Source: Escherichia coli (GTDB lineage Bacteria; Pseudomonadota; Gammaproteobacteria; Enterobacterales; Enterobacteriaceae). From it: a stretch of DNA of 64,000 nt. The stretch lies in the NCBI RefSeq assembly GCF_030013205.1, contig NZ_CP122648.1; one strand, given 5' to 3'. Below the pieces are notes generated by a model, which saw nothing but the letters and a program-made list of their open reading frames with translations, was not told where the DNA came from and made no database searches. The position numbers and the translations under genes are program-made. Of the stretch, positions 4,637 through 59,716 are shown in pieces (within the stretch, counting starts at the first letter, position 1; the number at the start of each line of letters is the position of its first letter).

Positions 4637-4713
4637 GGCTACGTAGCTCAGTTGGTTAGAGCACATCACTCATAATGATGGGGTCACAGGTTCGAATCCC
4701 GTCGTAGCCACCA
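4637..4713 (+). tRNA. metT: tRNA-Met (anticodon CAU, elongator)
   Basis: 77-nt sequence GGCTACGTAGCTCAGTTGGTTAGAGCACATCACTCATAATGATGGGGTCACAGGTTCGAATCCCGTCGTAGCCACCA with encoded CCA. Confidence 0.95.
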
Positions 4714-4721
4714 TCTTTTTT

Positions 4722-4806
4722 GCGGGAGTGGCGAAATTGGTAGACGCACCAGATTTAGGTTCTGGCGCCGCAAGGTGTGCGAGTTCAAGTCTCGCCTCCC
4801 GCACCA
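4722..4806 (+). tRNA. leuW: tRNA-Leu (anticodon UAG)
   Basis: 85-nt type II tRNA with long variable arm; anticodon loop TTTAGGT; encoded CCA. Confidence 0.95.
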
Positions 4807-4829
4807 TTCACCAGAAAGCGTTGTACGGA

Positions 4830-4904
4830 TGGGGTATCGCCAAGCGGTAAGGCACCGGTTTTTGATACCGGCATTCCCTGGTTCGAATCCAGGTACCCCA
4901 GCCA
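4830..4904 (+). tRNA. glnU: tRNA-Gln (anticodon UUG)
   Basis: 75-nt TGGGGTATCGCCAAGCGGTAAGGCACCGGTTTTTGATACCGG..CCAGCCA; anticodon TTG. Confidence 0.95.
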
Positions 4905-4938
4905 TATTCTTCGAGTAAGCGGTTCACCGCCCGGTTAT

Positions 4939-5013
4939 TGGGGTATCGCCAAGCGGTAAGGCACCGGTTTTTGATACCGGCATTCCCTGGTTCGAATCCA
5001 GGTACCCCAGCCA
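4939..5013 (+). tRNA. glnW: tRNA-Gln (anticodon UUG), identical second copy
   Basis: 75-nt sequence identical to the copy at 4830-4904. Confidence 0.95.
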
Positions 5014-5028
5014 TCGAAGAAACAATCT

Positions 5029-5105
5029 GGCTACGTAGCTCAGTTGGTTAGAGCACATCACTCATAATGATGGGGTCACAGGTTCGAATCCCGTCGTAGC
5101 CACCA
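5029..5105 (+). tRNA. metU: tRNA-Met (anticodon CAU), second copy
   Basis: 77-nt sequence identical to 4637-4713. Confidence 0.95.
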
Positions 5106-5153
5106 AATTCTGAATGTGTCGAATATGTTCGGCAAATTCAAAAACCAATTTGT

Positions 5154-5228
5154 TGGGGTATCGCCAAGCGGTAAGGCACCGGATTCTGATTCCGGCATTC
5201 CGAGGTTCGAATCCTCGTACCCCAGCCA
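5154..5228 (+). tRNA. glnV: tRNA-Gln (anticodon CUG)
   Basis: 75-nt tRNA with anticodon loop GGATTCTGATTCCGG (CTG); encoded CCA. Confidence 0.95.
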
Positions 5229-12390: not shown

Positions 12391-12644
12391 TAACAAAATC
12401 CCCCTATCCAACTTTGGCACATCTATTGCTTTGTTATACAAGGCAAAGCTTGAACCAGCATCAGTACAACCCGGTTGCACCACAGCAATCCACGGGTAGC
12501 ACCAAAAGAGTGCATTTTAAGAATTTTGCTTCGGAATGGTGCGGCGCAACTCGCAAAAACAAACAATAAAACAGCAATATCTTTACATTTAGCCAAACTA
12601 AATGTTACCTAACAGGCACAACACTGCACAATAAAGTTGCAGAC

Positions 12645-16988: not shown

Positions 16989-17013
16989 GCCGGATGACAT
17001 CACGCCATCCGGC
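16989..17013. other. palindromic hairpin at the convergent rihA/ybeL junction
   Basis: GCCGGATG-N9-CATCCGGC perfect 8-bp inverted repeat in the 44-bp spacer; no U tract. Confidence 0.4.
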
Positions 17014-17026
17014 ACCACTCATTTCA

Positions 17027-33712: not shown

Positions 33713-34507
33713 TCATAATAATTGCGGCGGCGCAAAGCGACGGTTGTTTAAGACGGGCAGTTGCGCGCGCACCTGACGCACACGTTCGGGCGTCACTTCC
33801 GCCATAATGAGTGCAGGCATTTCTGACGCTGCCGCAATGGTGACGCCAAAGGGATCTATAATCCGGCTTTGCCCGATATTTTTGTTCCCGCACTCCCCCG
33901 CCGCCACCATATAACAGGTGGTATCCAGCGCACGAGCGGCAAGCAACGTTGACCAGTGATGCTCTTTGAGCGGCCCACGAACCCAGGCGGCAGGAAGTAC
34001 CAGGATTTCAGCTCCCTGTAATGCCTGTGCCAGCGCCAGCTCTGGAAAGCGTAAGTCATAACAGGTCATCAGACCGACCTTCATCCCTTCCACCTCCAGT
34101 AACGGAGCTATTTCATTACCAGCATCAACATGGCGTGATTCCTGAATGGCAAATGCATCATAGAGATGCAGTTTGGCATAACGGGCGACGATGTTTCCTG
34201 CCTGTAGCGCCACCAGCATATTCCATGCGCGCCCCGGCGTTGAAGGAACATGAATCGTCAGAATTGTCGTCATCATGTTACGTTTACTTTCTCGCCGTAA
34301 ACGTCCGAGGAATTCGCCTTCCAGCAGCTGTGCTGATTTAACCGATAGATCTGCATCATGATCATCACGCGCCAACAATGCTTCCGGCAGGACAAACAGC
34401 GAAACGTCGTTTTCCGCCGCCTGCGCCATCAACGAGGCACAAATCTCAGCGTTCTTTTCCCACACAGATGTAACAGCAAACTGTCCTGCAGCAACCAGCA
34501 TTGCCAC
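33713..34507 (-). CDS. ybeM: C-N hydrolase (nitrilase superfamily) YbeM, apparently intact
   Basis: 264-aa uninterrupted ORF with catalytic-cysteine context [12 protein letters not shown]; the true start may be the second Met (34501). Confidence 0.8.
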
Positions 34508-34593
34508 CTCCTGTCAGAGTCGTAAAATTCGCCAACGACGATTATTCGGCGTTACACTTATCACTCATACAAATCAAATAGCAGGATTTTGCA

Positions 34594-34982: not shown

Positions 34983-35011
34983 AAAAAAAACCCGCTGATT
35001 AAGCGGGTTTT
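34983..35011. terminator. bidirectional terminator between crcB and cspE
   Basis: A8 run, CCCGCT-GATTA-AGCGGG hairpin, then TTTTG. Confidence 0.7.
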
Positions 35012-35030
35012 GAATTCTTGCTGACGTATC

Positions 35031-35240
35031 TTACAGAGCGATTACGTTTGCAGCAGAAGGGCCTTTGGCACCGTTAGTGATTTCGAACTCTACGCGCTGA
35101 CCTTCAGCAAGAGTTTTAAAACCATTAGTCTGGATTGCAGAGAAGTGTACAAACACGTCTTTGCTGCCGTCTTCCGGAGTAATGAAACCGAATCCTTTGG
35201 ACTCATTAAACCACTTAACGTTACCTTTAATCTTAGACAT
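35031..35240 (-). CDS. cspE: cold-shock-domain protein CspE
   Basis: 69 aa [20 protein letters not shown]..; the track ORF extends 28 codons upstream. Confidence 0.95.
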
Positions 35241-35414
35241 CAAAATTACCTTTACATGAAAAATAGACACAAATGCTGTGTCGGTTACCAGTACACCAAT
35301 TGTGGTACGCTTTGTCCAGTGCAACTTTACTAAAAAGTGATAAAAGTCGCGTTATTTTTGATGTTAATTATTTTACCCATTGATTTTAAAGAGTTTACTA
35401 AAATTTCATTTGTC

Positions 35415-49033: not shown

Positions 49034-49117
49034 CGCTCAAATATCAACCAGATTTATCATTTTGCTCTTAAGCGCAGCATTCTAATCTGAACTGGTTATT
49101 CATCTGCGGAACCTCAT

Positions 49118-49207
49118 ATGAGCGAAGCTCTCGGTATCACTGCATTTTATATATTCATAGCCGCGATTATTGTTGCTGCAGTGCTATACCTTGAACAACG
49201 CTGGTAG
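49118..49207 (+). CDS. candidate 29-aa single-pass membrane peptide (MSEALGITAFYIFIAAIIVAAVLYLEQRW)
   Basis: Short ORF below the track cutoff, translated by hand; one hydrophobic helix; weak RBS; no homology evidence. Confidence 0.2.
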   Translation: MSEALGITAFYIFIAAIIVAAVLYLEQRW

Positions 49208-49330
49208 CGCCTGGTTTTATTTATTTTCCAGCTCAATAGCAAATTCAGATCAAATCAGCCTCGCAAATCATAGATTCATAACCAATAATGTGCTGTTATG
49301 TATACATGCAAAAACAAGGAGAGAATGCTT

Positions 49331-49759: not shown

Positions 49760-49829
49760 TTGCCAGAATAAATATCCCGCCCTGCCCGGAGCCATCCCGG
49801 CGGGGCTTTTTATTGCCATAATAAATATC

Positions 49830-50535
49830 CTCCGGCATAGCCGGAGGTTTTTCAAATGCGCCTATAAGGCTCTCTTACCAGCCGCGCCCTAACAGGCGCA
49901 CACGATCTGACATTTGCATCCAACTTCGTTACTTACGGCCCGTAAACGGGCTGCCCGGATAGGGAATCGATAACTGCTCTCCCATTTTATCCTCTTCAAG
50001 CTGGTGCTTTATGTAATCCTGTATCTTCGCCGTGTTCTTACCCACTGTATCGACGTAGTACCCTCTGCACCAGAACTCCCTGTTCCTGTATTTGAATTTC
50101 AAATCACCAAACTGCTCGTAAAGCATCAGACTGCTTTTCCCTTTCAGATATCCCATAAACCCGGATACGCTCATTTTGGGCGGGATCTCCACAAGCATAT
50201 GGATATGATCTGCACAGCATTCAGCTTCCAGAATCCGTACGCTTTTCCACTCACACAGCTTTCTCAAAATACTGCCTATTGCTCTACGCTTCTCTCTGTA
50301 GAACACCTGTCTTCGGTATTTTGGCGCAAAAACTATGTGATATTTACAGTTCCATCGGGTGTGCGCTAAGCTCTTTTCGTTCCCCATTGGGACCCCCTTT
50401 TGATTTCTTGTTTGACACTTGCAGTTGCCAGACCGCAAGGTGTTTTAACAAATCAAAAGGGGTTTTAATAACTGGCTCAAAGCTGAAAGCTTTCCGGAAC
50501 CCCCAGCCTAGCTGGGGGTTTTCTGTGCACAAAAA
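49830..50535 (-). mobile_element. IS200-family insertion sequence (boundaries approximate, +/- about 30 bp)
   Basis: Contains a 152-aa Y1 (HUH) transposase gene; upstream of it the characteristic perfect hairpin CCCCCAGC-CTA-GCTGGGGG (50500-50518) and a second stem-loop (CCCCTTTTGATTTG..CAAATCAAAAGGGG) occluding the RBS; size about 0.7 kb as expected for IS200. Confidence 0.8.
49929..50387 (-). CDS. tnpA: IS200 transposase TnpA (Y1/HUH)
   Basis: MGNEKSLAHTRWNCKYHIVFAPKYRR..ADHIHMLVEIPPK.. with HUH motif HIH; near-identical to the IS200 TnpA I recall from Salmonella; the track ORF starts 17 codons upstream. Confidence 0.9.
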   Translation of the reverse strand: MGNEKSLAHTRWNCKYHIVFAPKYRRQVFYREKRRAIGSILRKLCEWKSVRILEAECCADHIHMLVEIPPKMSVSGFMGYLKGKSSLMLYEQFGDLKFKYRNREFWCRGYYVDTVGKNTAKIQDYIKHQLEEDKMGEQLSIPYPGSPFTGRK

Positions 50536-52156: not shown

Positions 52157-52326
52157 GTTTATCTCCTGGGCTTTAAACATCATCATGCAAGCGGCCTCTG
52201 CGGCTACCTGGATGCAGCTTGCATCATGGTGCGGGGAAGAAAATCGGGTGCCGCAGCACCCGAAGAATTAGGTGAATTTCCGAAGTATTTCGCGCCGGAG
52301 TTGGTAGCGCGAAAGACGAAGGAAAT

Positions 52327-52890
52327 TTAGATTTTACCAACCAGGTCCAGAGACGGAGCCAGAGTTGCTTCACCTTCTTTCCATTTAGCCGGGCAAACTT
52401 CACCTGGGTGAGAAGCTACGTACTGTGCTGCTTTGATTTTACGCAGCAGGTCAGACGCGTCACGGCCAATGCCTTCAGCGGTAACTTCGATTGCCTGGAT
52501 GATACCCTGCGGGTCAACAACGAAGGTCGCACGGTCAGCCAGACCTTCATCTTCACGCATGTTGTCGAAGTTACGGGTCAGGGCGCCAGTCGGGTCGCCG
52601 ATCATCGCATATTTGATTTTAGCGATGGTTTCAGAGCTGCTGTGCCATGCTTTGTGGGTGAAGTGAGTATCGGTAGATACTGCGTATACGTCTACGCCCA
52701 GTTTCTGCAGTTCTTCGTAGTGGTCAGCAACGTCACCCAGTTCGGTCGGGCATACGAAAGTAAAGTCAGCCGGGTAGAAGAAGAAGACGCTCCAGCGGCC
52801 TTCGGTATCTTTTTCGGTGATTTCGATGAATTCGCCGTTTTTGAATGCCTGGTTTTTAAAAGGTTTAATTTTGGTGTTAATCAAGGACAT
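52327..52890 (-). CDS. ahpC: alkyl hydroperoxide reductase subunit C (peroxiredoxin)
   Basis: 187 aa; peroxidatic Cys motif FTFVCPTE. Confidence 0.95.
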
Positions 52891-53261
52891 CTATACTTCC
52901 TCCGTGTTTTCGATGAGATGTAAGGTAACCAATTTTTGCCGATTCGGCTAATGCGTTTCCATTATCAAATCGATAAGTTTTACCTTACAACCTTCGTAAG
53001 ACAACTTTGTGAACTTTGCACCGCCAGCGGCGATAAAAAGTAAAATGGCCCCCTTTCCAGGTGACCGTGTAATCTGAACTACCCTTTGGTATCTTCAGCG
53101 CCTGCCTGCAGGCTGAGGTGTTGCCCTTACAAATGCAACAACGACATGGATTACAACACCCTCATAAACAAAGGGCAATCACCTGATCTAAGCTCTTACC
53201 TATGGCAGTGATAGGTTATGCCTTTTACCCGACTTTTGCACTGACTGAAAAGGACAAATTA

Positions 53262-54008
53262 ATGTTAAAAAAGATACTTTTACTGGCTCTGCTTCCTGCA
53301 ATCGCCTTCGCAGAGGAACTTCCTGCCCCAGTAAAAGCGATTGAAAAACAGGGCATTACAATCATCAAAACGTTCGATGCTCCCGGAGGAATGAAAGGTT
53401 ATCTCGGAAAGTATCAGGATATGGGCGTCACCATCTACCTGACTCCAGATGGTAAGCACGCTATCTCCGGTTACATGTACAACGAGAAAGGTGAAAACCT
53501 GAGTAACACACTTATCGAAAAAGAAATTTACGCACCAGCCGGACGCGAAATGTGGCAACGGATGGAACAATCCCACTGGCTCCTCGACGGTAAAAAAGAC
53601 GCGCCGGTCATTGTTTACGTCTTCGCCGATCCGTTCTGCCCATATTGTAAACAGTTCTGGCAGCAGGCGCGCCCGTGGGTAGATTCTGGCAAAGTGCAAT
53701 TAAGAACATTGTTGGTTGGGGTTATCAAGCCAGAAAGCCCGGCGACAGCAGCGGCAATTCTTGCCGCCAAAGATCCCGCAAAAACCTGGCAAGAATATGA
53801 AGCCTCTGGTGGCAAGCTTAAGCTAAACGTGCCTGCAAACGTAAGTACAGAGCAAATGAAAGTGTTAAGCGACAACGAGAAACTCATGGACGATCTGGGG
53901 GCAAATGTCACACCAGCTATCTACTACATGAGTAAGGAAAATACACTGCAACAGGCCGTGGGGTTGCCCGATCAGAAAACGCTTAATATCATTATGGGGA
54001 ATAAATAA
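53262..54008 (+). CDS. dsbG: periplasmic thiol:disulfide isomerase DsbG
   Basis: 248 aa from [17 protein letters not shown] (signal peptide); CPYC active site; the track ORF starts 20 codons upstream. Confidence 0.9.
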
Positions 54009-54215
54009 AAGATAATTCATGGATGGTTGAAATATATCCCTGTTTTTCAACCATCCTAAAAAAGCATGAATTGCTCGCTCTGCCCTAAGTGGCTGTGCTA
54101 TTTTAGAAAAACTTAATTCTGAGTTAAGCAAAAAAACATAATACAAATAAATACAACAGCAACATTATTGAACAAATGAATGATTTATAGAAGAGATAAT
54201 ATAACGGAGTATGTT

Positions 54216-55118
54216 ATGGCGAATCTTTATGACCTAAAAAAATTTGATCTGAATTTACTGGTCATATTTGAGTGCATTTATCAACACCTCAGCATTAGCA
54301 AAGCAGCAGAATCATTATATATAACGCCCTCTGCTGTTAGTCAGTCGTTACAACGTTTACGTGCGCAATTTAATGACCCGTTATTCATTCGCTCAGGGAA
54401 AGGTATCGCGCCGACTACGACAGGGTTAAATCTGCATCATCATCTTGAGAAAAATCTCAGAGGCCTTGAACAAACGATCAATATTGTTAATAAGTCTGAG
54501 CTAAAGAAAAATTTTATTATCTACGGTCCTCAGCTTATTTCTTGTACTAATAACAACATGCTAATCCGCTGTCTTAGACAAGATACTTCAATCGATATAG
54601 AATGCCATGACATACTGCTTTCAGCTGAAAATGCCGAAGAACTGTTGGTTCAACGCAAAACTGACCTGGCAATTACACTACAACCAGTAATTAGCCGCTC
54701 TGTCATCTGCATGCCGTTACATACTATTCGCAATTCTCTTATATGTAGCAACAAACATCCTCGTATTACCGATACCAGTAACTATGAACAAATTATCGCC
54801 GAAGAATTCACCTTGTTGATATCTAAATCAGCAGGGATTGACGAAATTCAAATGGACATAGATGAACGTTTTATGAACCGTAAAGTTTCATTTCGCAGTT
54901 CTTCTTTGTTGACGATAATTAATAGTATTTCTGTTACTGACTTATTGGGCATTGTGCCCACCGAACTGTACGATTTACATCGTGATTTTTTGAAGTTACA
55001 AGAGATAAAACTGGAACAACCACTTCCTGCGGTTAAACTTTATATTTCCTATAACAAGGCTTCGTTGAACAACCTTGTCTTCTCACGATTCATAGATCGT
55101 TTAAATGATAGCTTCTGA
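54216..55118 (+). CDS. ybdO: LysR-family transcriptional regulator YbdO
   Basis: 300 aa from MANLYDLKKFDLNLLVIFECIY.. (HTH ..ITPSAVSQSLQRLR..); strongly AT-rich; the track ORF starts 12 codons upstream. Confidence 0.85.
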   Translation: MANLYDLKKFDLNLLVIFECIYQHLSISKAAESLYITPSAVSQSLQRLRAQFNDPLFIRSGKGIAPTTTGLNLHHHLEKNLRGLEQTINIVNKSELKKNFIIYGPQLISCTNNNMLIRCLRQDTSIDIECHDILLSAENAEELLVQRKTDLAITLQPVISRSVICMPLHTIRNSLICSNKHPRITDTSNYEQIIAEEFTLLISKSAGIDEIQMDIDERFMNRKVSFRSSSLLTIINSISVTDLLGIVPTELYDLHRDFLKLQEIKLEQPLPAVKLYISYNKASLNNLVFSRFIDRLNDSF

Positions 55119-55264
55119 TTTAATACCACTGATAAATGTTATATTACGCATCAATTGATTCATTGTGTGAATATAAAATAATGTGCTCTATCTTGCTTCG
55201 TTTACCCTATAATTAGCGGATTCATCTCACGAGTCACCCCGTAACGTTCAGAGAGCGTTTTCAG

Positions 55265-56485
55265 ATGTCTATTTATAAAATCCCGCTTCCACTGAATATT
55301 CTGGAAGCTGCAAAAGAACGTATTACCTGGACACTTAACACCCTACCCCGCGTCTGCGTTTCTTTTTCGGGTGGTAAAGATTCCGGATTAATGCTGCATC
55401 TGACCGCCGAACTTGCCCGACAAATGGGCAAAAAAATTTGTGTTTTATTTATCGACTGGGAAGCTCAGTTCTCTTGCACCATTAACTATGTTCAGTCCCT
55501 GCGCGAGTTGTACACCGATGTCATCGAAGAGTTTTACTGGGTTGCACTCCCGCTTACAACGCAAAATTCCCTATCACAATACCAACCCGAATGGCAGTGC
55601 TGGGAACCTGATGTCGAATGGGTACGTCAGCCTCCGCAAGATGCGATAACCGATCCTGACTTTTTCTCCTTTTACCAGCCAGGCATGACCTTCGAACAAT
55701 TTGTGCGTGAGTTTGCCGAATGGTTTTCACAAAAACGTCCGGCGGCGATGATGATCGGCATCCGTGCGGATGAGTCCTACAACCGTTTTGTCGCCATCGC
55801 CAGTTTAAATAAACAACGTTTTGCCGATGATAAGCCCTGGACCACTGCCGCACCAGGCGGTCATAGCTGGTACATTTACCCCATCTACGACTGGAAAGTC
55901 GCTGATATCTGGACCTGGTATGCAAATCATCAAAGTCTCTGCAACCCACTGTATAACCTAATGTATCAGGCAGGCGTTCCTCTGCGTCATATGCGAATTT
56001 GCGAACCTTTTGGCCCGGAGCAACGACAAGGATTATGGCTCTATCACGTTATCGAACCGGATCGCTGGGCTGCTATGTGCGCACGAGTCAGCGGGGTAAA
56101 AAGTGGCGGCATTTACGCCGGACATGACAACCATTTTTATGGTCATCGGAAAATCCTCAAGCCCGAACATTTAGACTGGCAGGAGTATGCATTATTGCTA
56201 CTCAACAGCATGCCGGAGAAAACAGCTGAGCATTATCGCAATAAAATCGCCATTTATTTGCACTGGTATCAGAAAAAAGGCATCGAGGTTCCACAAACCC
56301 AGCAAGGGGACATTGGCGCGAAAGATATCCCCTCCTGGCGGCGAATATGCAAAGTTTTACTCAATAACGATTACTGGTGTCGGGCATTATCATTTAGCCC
56401 GACCAAAGCGAAGAACTATCAGCGTTATAACGAACGAATAAAAGGAAAACGTCAGGAATGGGGGATACTATGCAACAACGATTAA
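55265..56485 (+). CDS. ybdN: PAPS-reductase-like PP-loop ATP-pyrophosphatase family protein YbdN (IbrA homologue)
   Basis: 406 aa; PP-loop motif VSFSGGKDSGLM near the N terminus. Confidence 0.85.
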   Translation: MSIYKIPLPLNILEAAKERITWTLNTLPRVCVSFSGGKDSGLMLHLTAELARQMGKKICVLFIDWEAQFSCTINYVQSLRELYTDVIEEFYWVALPLTTQNSLSQYQPEWQCWEPDVEWVRQPPQDAITDPDFFSFYQPGMTFEQFVREFAEWFSQKRPAAMMIGIRADESYNRFVAIASLNKQRFADDKPWTTAAPGGHSWYIYPIYDWKVADIWTWYANHQSLCNPLYNLMYQAGVPLRHMRICEPFGPEQRQGLWLYHVIEPDRWAAMCARVSGVKSGGIYAGHDNHFYGHRKILKPEHLDWQEYALLLLNSMPEKTAEHYRNKIAIYLHWYQKKGIEVPQTQQGDIGAKDIPSWRRICKVLLNNDYWCRALSFSPTKAKNYQRYNERIKGKRQEWGILCNND

Positions 56486-57087
56486 CGCAGGATTTAACCC
56501 AATTTCTCGCCAGCTTGCCGGAAGACGATCGCATCAAAGCGATTAATGAAATCCGCATGGCGATCCATAAGGTCAGTCCTTTTCGTGAAGAGCCGGTGCA
56601 TTGTGTTTTGTGGGTGAAAAATAGCCAGCTCGTGCCGAATGATTACAATCCCAATAATGTGGCACCACCAGAGAAGAAACTGCTGCAAAAATCCATTGAA
56701 ATAGATGGCTTTACGCAACCCATTGTGGTCACGCATACAGATAAAAATGCTCTGGAAATTGTTGATGGTTTTCACCGCCATGAAATAGGTAAAGGCTTAT
56801 CATCGTTAAAATTACGCTTAAAAGGTTATTTGCCAGTAACCTGTCTGGAAGGTACACGTAATCAACGCATCGCCGCGACTATTCGTCATAACCGCGCCCG
56901 TGGTCGCCATCAAATCACTGCCATGTCCGAAATTGTTCGTGAACTCAGCCAGTTGGGATGGGACGATCATAAAATCGGCAAAGAGCTGGGAATGGACAGC
57001 GACGAGGTGCTGCGCCTGAAACAAATTAACGGCCTGCAAGAACTGTTTGCCGACCGTCAATTTTCCCGCGCATGGACGGTTAAATAA
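56458..57087 (+). CDS. ybdM: ParB/sulfiredoxin-like domain protein YbdM (IbrB homologue)
   Basis: 209 aa; DGFHRHE motif of the ParB/Srx (DGQHR-like) fold; overlaps ybdN by 28 nt. Confidence 0.8.
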   Translation: MGDTMQQRLTQDLTQFLASLPEDDRIKAINEIRMAIHKVSPFREEPVHCVLWVKNSQLVPNDYNPNNVAPPEKKLLQKSIEIDGFTQPIVVTHTDKNALEIVDGFHRHEIGKGLSSLKLRLKGYLPVTCLEGTRNQRIAATIRHNRARGRHQITAMSEIVRELSQLGWDDHKIGKELGMDSDEVLRLKQINGLQELFADRQFSRAWTVK

Positions 57088-58248
57088 CTACAGCTGGCGC
57101 AGGCGTTCAGCGGCTGCCAGCAACGTCGATTCCTTCTTGGCAAAACAGAGACGAATCAGTTTATGGGGGAAGGGATCGGCGCAAAACACCGACAGCGGAA
57201 TCGCCGCTACACCGTGCTCCCGCGTCAGCCACTGGCAAAACTCAACATCATCCAGCGTAGACACGGCGCTGTAATTCACCAGCAAAAAGTATGTACCTTC
57301 GCACGGTAAAATCTCCAGCCGGCTTTCACTTAAGGCATTCACCAGAATATCGCGTTTTTGGCGATAAAAGTCCGGTAACGCAAGATAATGCTCAGGTTCT
57401 GCACGTAGCATATCCGCAAGTGCCAGCTGTGCCGGGGTATTCACCGAAAAGGTCAGATACTGGTGTACCTTGCGAATTTCAGCGCTGATGGGCGCTGGCG
57501 CAACGCAATAACCCACTTTCCAGCCGGTCATATGATAGGTCTTGCCAAATGAAGAAACTGCCACCGCCCGCTCACGCAGCTGCGGATGCGCCAGCACGCT
57601 GGCATGGCCCTGTTGTGAAAAGTTGATGTGCTCGTAAACTTCATCGCTAATGACAAAAATCTCGTGCCCGGCAATTGCCTGCCACAAAGCGGCGAAATCA
57701 GCCTGCTGCCAGACAGTTGCACTGGGGTTATGCGGGGTGTTGAGGATCACCTGTCGGGTGCGCTCGCTTAACAATGCGGCAAATTCCTGCCAGTCCACGC
57801 GAAAATGCGGTGGTTGCAGTGCAATACGTTTCACTATTCCCCCCGAAAGCGCGATGGCGGGCGCGTAACTGTCATAGCTGGGATCAAAGCAGATCACTTC
57901 ATCACCATTGCGCACCAATGCGGTAATCGCTGCATATAACGCTTCCGTCGCCCCTGCCGTTACGGTGATATCACTATCGGCATCCGGTTGATAGCCATAC
58001 AGACGTTCCGTTTTCTGAGCAATCGCCTCGCGCAAGGCCTGCACGCCAGTCATAGGCGCGTATTGGTTTGCCCCCTGGTCAACATGGTACGCCAGCCGCT
58101 CCTGCAAATAGCGCGGACCATCAAAATCAGGAAAGCCTTGCGACAGGTTAATCGCCTGGTGTTGCTGCGCCAACGCGCTCATCTGGGTGAAAATAGTGGT
58201 GCCAAGTTGTGGAAGTTTGCTTTGTGGAATCAGAGGGTTATTTGTCAT
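57088..58248 (-). CDS. ybdL: methionine aminotransferase YbdL (PLP-dependent)
   Basis: 386 aa; PLP-lysine context SSFGKTYHMTGWKVGY; its stop codon abuts the ybdM stop. Confidence 0.9.
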   Translation of the reverse strand: MTNNPLIPQSKLPQLGTTIFTQMSALAQQHQAINLSQGFPDFDGPRYLQERLAYHVDQGANQYAPMTGVQALREAIAQKTERLYGYQPDADSDITVTAGATEALYAAITALVRNGDEVICFDPSYDSYAPAIALSGGIVKRIALQPPHFRVDWQEFAALLSERTRQVILNTPHNPSATVWQQADFAALWQAIAGHEIFVISDEVYEHINFSQQGHASVLAHPQLRERAVAVSSFGKTYHMTGWKVGYCVAPAPISAEIRKVHQYLTFSVNTPAQLALADMLRAEPEHYLALPDFYRQKRDILVNALSESRLEILPCEGTYFLLVNYSAVSTLDDVEFCQWLTREHGVAAIPLSVFCADPFPHKLIRLCFAKKESTLLAAAERLRQL

Positions 58249-58355
58249 TTTTTATTGTGCCTGACGAAGTTGTGTTGAAGGCACTATAACACGATGCTAG
58301 TATTTGGCAATCAAGACGTTTAGATGTCTAAATAAAACAATAAGGACAACACAAC

Positions 58356-59444
58356 ATGCCTCACAATCCTATCCGCGTGGTCGTAGGCCCGGCTAACTAC
58401 TTTTCACATCCAGGAAGTTTCAATCACCTGCACGATTTTTTCACTGATGAACAACTTTCTCGCGCGGTGTGGATCTACGGCGAACGCGCCATTGCTGCGG
58501 CGCAAACAAAACTTCCGCCAGCGTTTGAACTGCCAGGGGCAAAGCATTTTTTGTTTCGCGGTCATTGCAGCGAAAGCGGTGTACAACAACTGGCGGCTGA
58601 CTCCGGTGACGATCGCAGCGTGGTGATTGGCGTCGGCGGCGGCGCACTGCTCGACACCGCAAAAGCCCTCGCCCGCCGTCTCGGTCTGCCGTTTGTTGCC
58701 GTTCCGACGATAGCCGCTACCTGCGCCGCCTGGACACCGCTCTCCGTCTGGTATAACGATGCCGGACAGGCGCTGCATTTTGAGATTTTCGACGACGCCA
58801 ATTTTATGGTGCTGGTGGAACCAGAGATTATCCTCAATGCGCCGCAACAATATCTGCTGGCGGGGATCGGTGACACGCTGGCGAAATGGTATGAAGCGGT
58901 GGTGCTGGCTCCGCAACCAGAAACGTTGCCGCTAACCGTGCGGCTGGGGATCAATAATGCGCAGGCCATTCGCGACGTCTTGTTAAACAGTAGCGAACAG
59001 GCGCTTGCCGATCAGCAAAATCACCAGTTAACGCAATCATTTTGCGATGTGGTGGATGCCATTATTGCTGGTGGTGGGATGGTCGGTGGTCTGGGCGATC
59101 GTTTTACGCGTGTGGCGGCGGCCCATGCCGTGCATAACGGTCTGACCGTTTTGCCGCAAACCGAGAAGTTTCTCCACGGCACCAAAGTCGCCTACGGAAT
59201 TCTGGTGCAAAGCGCCTTGCTGGGTCAGGATGATGTGCTGGCGCAATTAACTGGAGCGTATCAGCGTTTTCATCTGCCGACTACGCTGGCGGAGCTGGAA
59301 GTGGATATCAATAATCAGGCGGAGATCGACAAAGTGATTGCCCACACCTTGCGTCCGGTGGAATCCATTCATTACCTGCCAGTCACGCTGACACCAGATA
59401 CGTTGCGTGCAGCGTTCGAAAAAGTGGAATCGTTTAAAGCCTGA
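58356..59444 (+). CDS. ybdH: glycerol-dehydrogenase-like (iron-ADH family) oxidoreductase YbdH
   Basis: 362 aa; GVGGGALLDTAK nucleotide-binding motif. Confidence 0.9.
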   Translation: MPHNPIRVVVGPANYFSHPGSFNHLHDFFTDEQLSRAVWIYGERAIAAAQTKLPPAFELPGAKHFLFRGHCSESGVQQLAADSGDDRSVVIGVGGGALLDTAKALARRLGLPFVAVPTIAATCAAWTPLSVWYNDAGQALHFEIFDDANFMVLVEPEIILNAPQQYLLAGIGDTLAKWYEAVVLAPQPETLPLTVRLGINNAQAIRDVLLNSSEQALADQQNHQLTQSFCDVVDAIIAGGGMVGGLGDRFTRVAAAHAVHNGLTVLPQTEKFLHGTKVAYGILVQSALLGQDDVLAQLTGAYQRFHLPTTLAELEVDINNQAEIDKVIAHTLRPVESIHYLPVTLTPDTLRAAFEKVESFKA

Positions 59445-59453
59445 CGTACATAT

Positions 59454-59651
59454 TTAGCAGCAGCGCGCGCCGCCTTTTCCACCGTAGCGCGCGTCCTGCC
59501 GCTCACGGAAAAACTCCTCGTAGGTCATCGGCGTTTGATCGGGATGGTTAACCCGCATATGTTCGACATAGTTGTCGTAATCAGGCATACCAATCATCAG
59601 TTTCGCCGCCTGACCTAAATATTTTCCGGCTTTTGCCAGTGAATCAAACAT
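59454..59651 (-). CDS. ybdD: small DUF466 protein YbdD (co-transcribed with cstA)
   Basis: 65 aa [65 protein letters not shown]; the track ORF is 1 codon longer. Confidence 0.85.
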
Positions 59652-59716
59652 CAATACCTCCGGTAAACAGGTTGCTGAGAGAGTGCATTAATAGCTATCA
59701 ACGCACTTGGTCAGTC

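Follow-up and report, generated by a model that had tools for sequence, protein, structure and literature searches.

Intact ybeM in a non-K-12 Escherichia coli chromosome: a predicted deaminated glutathione amidase gene that carries a single-base deletion in K-12

The ybeM locus, its translation start and regulatory signals

The window, by which we mean the whole 64,000-nucleotide stretch of Escherichia coli DNA analyzed here, carries ybeM within the local order lipA (+), tatE (-), ybeM (-), crcB (+), cspE (-), pagP (-), which is the reverse complement of the K-12 map. The order lipA-tatE-ybeM-crcB-cspE-pagP is the same in K-12, BL21 and strain 118UI and, together with the identity of 261/262 residues to the BL21 protein, identifies the gene as orthologous. 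The listing of open reading frames gives an uninterrupted maximal frame at 33713..34507 on the minus strand, with 264 codons when read from a GTG. This region comprises the following features.

33713..34501, minus strand: ybeM coding sequence of 262 aa, from ATG at 34501 to a TAA stop ending at 33713; predicted Nit1-type deaminated glutathione amidase (C-N hydrolase family)
34502..34507, minus strand: two extra in-frame codons, GTG GCA, which extend the maximal frame to 264 codons; the GTG overlaps AGGAGG without a spacer, and RefSeq uses the ATG
34507..34512, minus strand: Shine-Dalgarno-like AGGAGG read from the sequence, upstream of the ATG and 5 nt away from it
34151..34161, minus strand: ATGATGCATTT, candidate NsrR half-site with one mismatch to the consensus; gene nt 341-351

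On the gene strand, the sequence 5' of ybeM reads ...ACAGGAGGTGGCAATGCTG. The GTG at 34507 shares its first G with the 3' end of AGGAGG, i.e. the spacing between the two is zero. In genomes with an identical gene, RefSeq/PGAP annotates a CDS of 789 nt and 262 aa that begins with the ATG (WP_001305561.1). Since the GTG is fused to the Shine-Dalgarno-like sequence, the ATG lies 5 nt downstream of that sequence and RefSeq uses the ATG, the likely start is ATG 34501, and the GTG was ruled out as the true start. The real gene thus most likely covers 33713-34501, with 262 codons inside the 264-codon maximal frame, and the codons GTG GCA are probably untranslated. The first-pass annotation had described ybeM as an intact frame of 264 codons. 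The frame is indeed uninterrupted and matches both Pfam and NCBIfam models, as detailed below, the figure of 264 being that of the maximal frame.

A consensus scan of the gene strand upstream of ybeM found no sigma-70 promoter, and at the gene's 3' end the same scan detected only a weak terminator-like hairpin. No RNA family was found in or beside ybeM by an Rfam scan. The 5' region and gene of cspE, beside crcB, match the Rfam cspA thermoregulator (119 bits, 34983-35341, minus strand), as expected for a cspA-family paralogue.

In the uropathogenic strain CFT073, ybeM is transcribed and regulated, and an NsrR ChIP-seq peak was reported 345 nt into the gene (PMC5320621). The half-site listed above coincides with this peak, and the two may be linked. 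A search with the half-site pattern returned 2 matches versus 2.1 expected, which is not above chance when taken alone. In strain UTI89, out-of-frame pieces of ybeM (112, 87 and 29 bp) over-expressed from pBAD24 led to filamentation, and the full open reading frame led to none; the 29-bp fragment was reported to encode MFLQRRGAH (PMC6206680). The same peptide is also present in the frameshifted reading frame of K-12 ybeM.

Family assignment and predicted activity of YbeM

The encoded protein matches Pfam PF00795 (CN_hydrolase) with E=4.3e-41 and 141.4 bits, against a gathering threshold of 23.2, over residues 5-247 and positions 2-255 of the 256 in the profile. The NCBIfam model for deaminated glutathione (dGSH) amidase, NF033621, is covered from position 2 to 260 of 260 and scores 451.5 bits; the cut-off of 355 is exceeded by about 96 bits, which places the protein within this family. 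Given these two matches, the open reading frame is not a chance one. The best relatives among solved structures are of the Nit1 type, namely NitFhit of Caenorhabditis elegans (1ems, E=1.7e-29) and yeast Nit2 (4h5u, E=1.1e-26), and the Nit2-type structure 2w1v was also matched, with E=4.4e-22. In the alignment with 1ems, residues E40, K110 and C147 of YbeM fall on E54, K127 and C169, which reportedly form the catalytic triad in the NitFhit structure of Pace et al. 2000. The three codons are located as follows.

34382..34384, minus strand: Glu40, putative catalytic glutamate in an LPE motif, aligned with Glu54 of 1ems
34172..34174, minus strand: Lys110, putative catalytic lysine in AKLHLYD, aligned with Lys127 of 1ems
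34061..34063, minus strand: Cys147 (TGT), putative catalytic nucleophile, aligned with Cys169 of 1ems

The frame had previously been described as that of a C-N hydrolase, with a motif in a catalytic-cysteine context. This motif covers residues 143-154 in the 262-aa numbering, its cysteine is C147, and both the Pfam match and the alignment with C169 of 1ems agree with the assignment.

By analogy with the superfamily, Glu40 would act as the general base and Cys147 would attack the amide carbonyl of deaminated glutathione, with Lys110 stabilizing the tetrahedral intermediate or oxyanion. The resulting thioester intermediate would then be hydrolysed, giving 2-oxoglutarate and cysteinylglycine. The hydrolysis of dGSH to 2-oxoglutarate and Cys-Gly is numbered EC 3.5.1.128. 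Deaminated glutathione is itself a side-product of transaminases acting on glutathione, and the YbeM reaction would be one of metabolite repair.

The closest named system is the YbeM protein of BL21(DE3) (WP_000959109.1, 'deaminated glutathione amidase', NF033621), also of 262 aa, encoded at a locus ordered crcB / ybeM / tatE / lipA and sharing the whole catalytic triad. The one residue that differs is at position 124, which is H in the window and R in both BL21 and K-12. At the nucleotide level the two genes differ at 10 positions, and the codons concerned comprise 9 synonymous changes and 1 non-synonymous change. The window protein is identical to WP_001305561.1, the protein annotated for strains 118UI, K_EC180 and 631; the H124 allele is widespread. 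The earlier statement that this genome carries the functional allele is therefore a reasonable prediction, the frame being intact and its product one residue (H124R) away from the BL21(DE3) enzyme. The 2017 PNAS study of Nit1 and dGSH by Peracchi et al. reportedly includes the experimental characterization of YbeM from an E. coli B strain, and the B-strain protein is presumably covered in UniProt as well.

Eukaryotic Nit1 proteins (mammalian Nit1, the yeast NIT2 product and the Nit domain of NitFhit) share with YbeM the fold family, the Glu-Lys-Cys triad and the assigned reaction. PMC5714238, with reference to Peracchi et al. 2017, treats Nit1 and its yeast orthologue Nit2 as amidases that act on dGSH, and dGSH as a transaminase side-product. 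YbeM differs from these proteins by its distant sequence and by being a stand-alone enzyme, with neither a Fhit fusion nor a mitochondrial targeting sequence. E. coli YafV and mammalian Nit2, which are omega-amidases, share with YbeM the CN_hydrolase superfamily and its catalytic chemistry but belong to a different subfamily.

This kinship raises the question of whether the intact frame encodes an enzyme with another substrate, i.e. an omega-amidase of the Nit2/YafV type acting on 2-oxoglutaramate, a nitrilase, or some other aliphatic amidase. All these enzymes have in common the CN_hydrolase fold and a Glu-Lys-Cys triad, and weak matches to the corresponding models do occur, as does the match to 2w1v. 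However, all the other amidase, nitrilase and omega-amidase models remain far under their own curated cut-offs. The YafV/Nit2 omega-amidase model (NF007757, PRK10438) reaches 61.5 bits where 249 would be needed, so that YbeM is not a member of this group; the true nitrilase model (NF040852) gives 61.5 bits against 500, and the aliphatic amidase model 23.6 bits against 427. The margin by which the dGSH amidase model is passed and the Nit1 type of the best structures also speak against another substrate, as does the presence in E. coli of a separate gene for the omega-amidase role, yafV, whose product is named '2-oxoglutaramate amidase' (PMC8711792). We consider a different substrate improbable. 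Deaminated glutathione is the substrate predicted for YbeM by the curated model and by the near-identity to the BL21(DE3) protein.

The K-12 deletion and its distribution among E. coli genomes

The annotation of K-12 MG1655 lists ybeM (b4581) as a pseudogene of 788 nt (NC_000913.3 658031-658818), and PGAP independently tags the K-12 copy as 'frameshifted' (CP032667). When the window CDS was aligned globally with the K-12 sequence, 12 substitutions and one 1-nt gap appeared, corresponding to 98.5% identity aside from the indel (789 nt). The gap defines the K-12 lesion.

34302, minus strand: G present here but lost by deletion from K-12 MG1655 and related strains, from the alignment with NC_000913.3; CDS nt 200, in codon 67 (CGT), read as C on the plus strand

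In NC_000913.3 the lesion lies around 658,230, and the deletion turns GGACGTTTAC into GGACTTTAC. Frame 0 of the K-12 gene consequently encodes a product of 75 aa, made of 66 native and 9 aberrant residues, with the remainder of the protein in another frame. Because it ends at 75 aa, the K-12 product lacks Lys110 and Cys147. The K-12 locus is orthologous and shares the gene order, and when its frame is restored the protein shows V33A, V37A and H124R. The window keeps the G at 34302 and reads through, and hence does not carry the K-12 allele. That ybeM is disrupted in K-12 MG1655 had been stated in the first-pass annotation, with an alignment to the K-12 region proposed as a check. The pseudogene annotation, the 'frameshifted' tag and the single deleted G all bear this out: in the alignment K-12 ybeM is not full-length without a frameshift, and the lesion falls at CDS nt 200. 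The pseudogene status of the K-12 copy and the family assignment are already known in public annotation.

Among complete E. coli genomes, the 1-kb ybeM region was found in 5,424 of 5,426. A 61-mer representing the intact form across the lesion site has a 100% match in 3,625 of 5,424 complete genomes, and a 60-mer representing the K-12 deletion has one in 860 of 5,423 (~16%). The other roughly 940 genomes have SNPs near the site and match neither probe exactly. About five-sixths of complete E. coli genomes are thus without the K-12 deletion, and exact matches to the intact site account for two-thirds. Matches to the region of 1004 bp rather than 1001 bp were considered as a possible in-frame variant of ybeM, but the 3-bp difference falls between ybeM and crcB, and these genomes encode the identical protein.

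The 860 carriers of the deletion include many K-12 derivatives (several independent MG1655 assemblies, along with C600, DH5alpha and J53) as well as clinical, animal and food isolates with genomes of 4.7-5.0 Mb. In the chicken isolate ECCHD184 (4.78 Mb), ybeM is annotated as 'frameshifted', and with only 2 of 788 nt different from K-12 the two alleles are indicated to be identical by descent. The river-water strain W5-6 was rejected as an example of a natural carrier, its 4.64-Mb genome looking like that of K-12 itself, and ECCHD184 was used instead. The non-laboratory carriers and the near-identity of the ECCHD184 allele mark the lesion as a natural polymorphism inherited within a sublineage, and not as an error in the reference sequence. 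Intact ybeM is present in strains as distant as BL21(DE3), O157:H7, UTI89, CFT073 and the swine type described below. It is the usual, majority state in E. coli and is probably also the ancestral one. An intact ybeM taken alone therefore says only that a strain is not of the K-12 sublineage. A different ybeM frameshift was observed in the bovine strain UTAK-4 (NZ_CP157156.1, 730-1519 of the extracted locus), in which the CDS has 790 nt (+1) and is annotated as 'frameshifted'; the gene was either lost separately there or the assembly is in error.

An alternative reading is that intact ybeM can be dispensed with and is on its way to being lost, as a cryptic gene whose frame is open only by chance. 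In the K-12 sublineage (about 16% of sequenced complete genomes) ybeM has been lost without obvious harm, UTAK-4 possibly represents an independent loss, and the consensus scan revealed no promoter. On the other hand, the gene is intact across the distant strains just named, it is transcribed and regulated in CFT073 (PMC5320621), and the 9 synonymous versus 1 non-synonymous codon differences from BL21 point to constraint, an excess that is consistent with purifying selection. We regard drift as slightly less probable still than a different substrate. As for the K-12 'pseudogene' being an artefact of sequencing or annotation with no real allelic difference behind it, single-base indels are the commonest assembly error and the UTAK-4 frameshift could be one, but the idea is effectively refuted by the deletion standing at 100% identity in 860 independent complete assemblies, several of them of MG1655 and others of clinical and animal isolates, and by the 'frameshifted' PGAP annotation of both CP032667 and ECCHD184, the latter only 2/788 nt away from K-12.

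More speculatively, the loss of ybeM may be no neutral accident, the loss of dGSH repair being tolerated or even favoured in some niches, because a successful sublineage (860 genomes, clinical ones included) has the deletion fixed and a second frameshift exists in UTAK-4. The intact frame might in turn have a second, regulatory role connecting nitrosative stress with the repair of glutathione damage, since it contains the candidate NsrR-type site at 34151-34161 under the published ChIP peak. We would give this pair of ideas little credence at present.

Lineage of the chromosome and meaning of the intact allele

The whole window was compared by BLAST with positions 622,000-712,000 of K-12. Over the DNA that is shared, identity to K-12 is 96.7-98.5%, save at 52307-59686, where it is 93.5%. 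Four differences in content or insertion sites stand out.

12608-12612: empty IS5D site; K-12 has the insertion between gltI and lnt, and there is none here
16989-17026: place of the missing block ybeQ-ybeR-djlB-ybeT-ybeU-djlC-hscC (K-12 675,501-683,471), where rihA is followed almost directly by ybeL
49036-49313: place of the missing ybdR (putative Zn-dependent alcohol dehydrogenase; K-12 642,088-643,326), between rnk/yldA and uspG; missing in 118UI too
49826-50530: IS200C-type insertion of about 0.7 kb between uspG and ahpF, with a tnpA open reading frame at 49929-50438 on the minus strand; not in K-12 or 118UI

The IS200 element contains an Rfam STnc490 match at 50397-50520 on the minus strand. 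In swine O139:H1/ETEC genomes an IS200C is annotated at the same site, and each record has about 19-33 matching places, which apparently represent further IS200 copies. The junction left by the missing hscC block is also found elsewhere: rihA and ybeL are contiguous over at least 80% of the query in about 1,016 of 5,424 genomes, which suggests that these genomes may likewise be devoid of the block. Both junction-spanning queries are 100% identical to the swine isolates K_EC180, O139:H1 W13-16 and P15-25 and to several 'ETEC' strains. Strain 118UI, in contrast, is 100% identical over the 1-kb ybeM region, yet it keeps ybeQ-ybeR-djlB-ybeT and is without the IS200, and was therefore set aside as the source genome.

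An IS200 copy and the lack of the hscC block had been noted previously and taken as signs of a non-K-12 lineage. Both are there, the former at about 49826-50530 and the latter as the absence of K-12 675,501-683,471 at 16989-17026. Along with the lack of IS5D and ybdR, the 93.5-98.5% identity to K-12 and the swine-type junctions at 100% identity, they support the attribution; these differences from K-12 and the perfect junction matches to swine genomes show that the non-K-12 inference was correct.

Two further observations concern the rest of the window. The segment at 52307-59686 has 24 gap positions relative to K-12, and its flanks are about 97-98% identical. In K-12 terms it runs roughly from upstream of ahpC through dsbG, citR, ybdN, ybdM, ybdL, hcxA and ybdD, and it may have been acquired by recombination with a divergent lineage. 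In the tRNA cluster at 4637-5225, downstream of ubiF, Rfam finds six tRNAs; K-12 annotates seven (metT-leuW-glnU-glnW-metU-glnV-glnX), and, judging by the BLAST tiling, one tRNA-Gln copy appears to be missing from the cluster in the window.

Taken as a whole, the reading frame is very probably the intact chromosomal ybeM of a non-K-12 E. coli, encoding a cytoplasmic amidase of 262 aa from the Nit1 branch, a gene that K-12 and a related sublineage have lost through the deletion of a single G. To what was already annotated, this analysis adds the exact lesion, its population frequency (~16% of complete genomes), a corrected start and the match with a swine O139:H1/ETEC-type chromosome. The window should be annotated as encoding a 262-aa deaminated glutathione amidase, predicted to be functional, with its start at 34501. 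The lost G is a handy single-base marker for the K-12-related sublineage. Beyond the fact that K-12 is an atypical reference for ybeM, the finding is mostly bookkeeping. Since K-12 is atypical in this respect, dGSH repair in E. coli should be studied either in non-K-12 strains or with the allele repaired.
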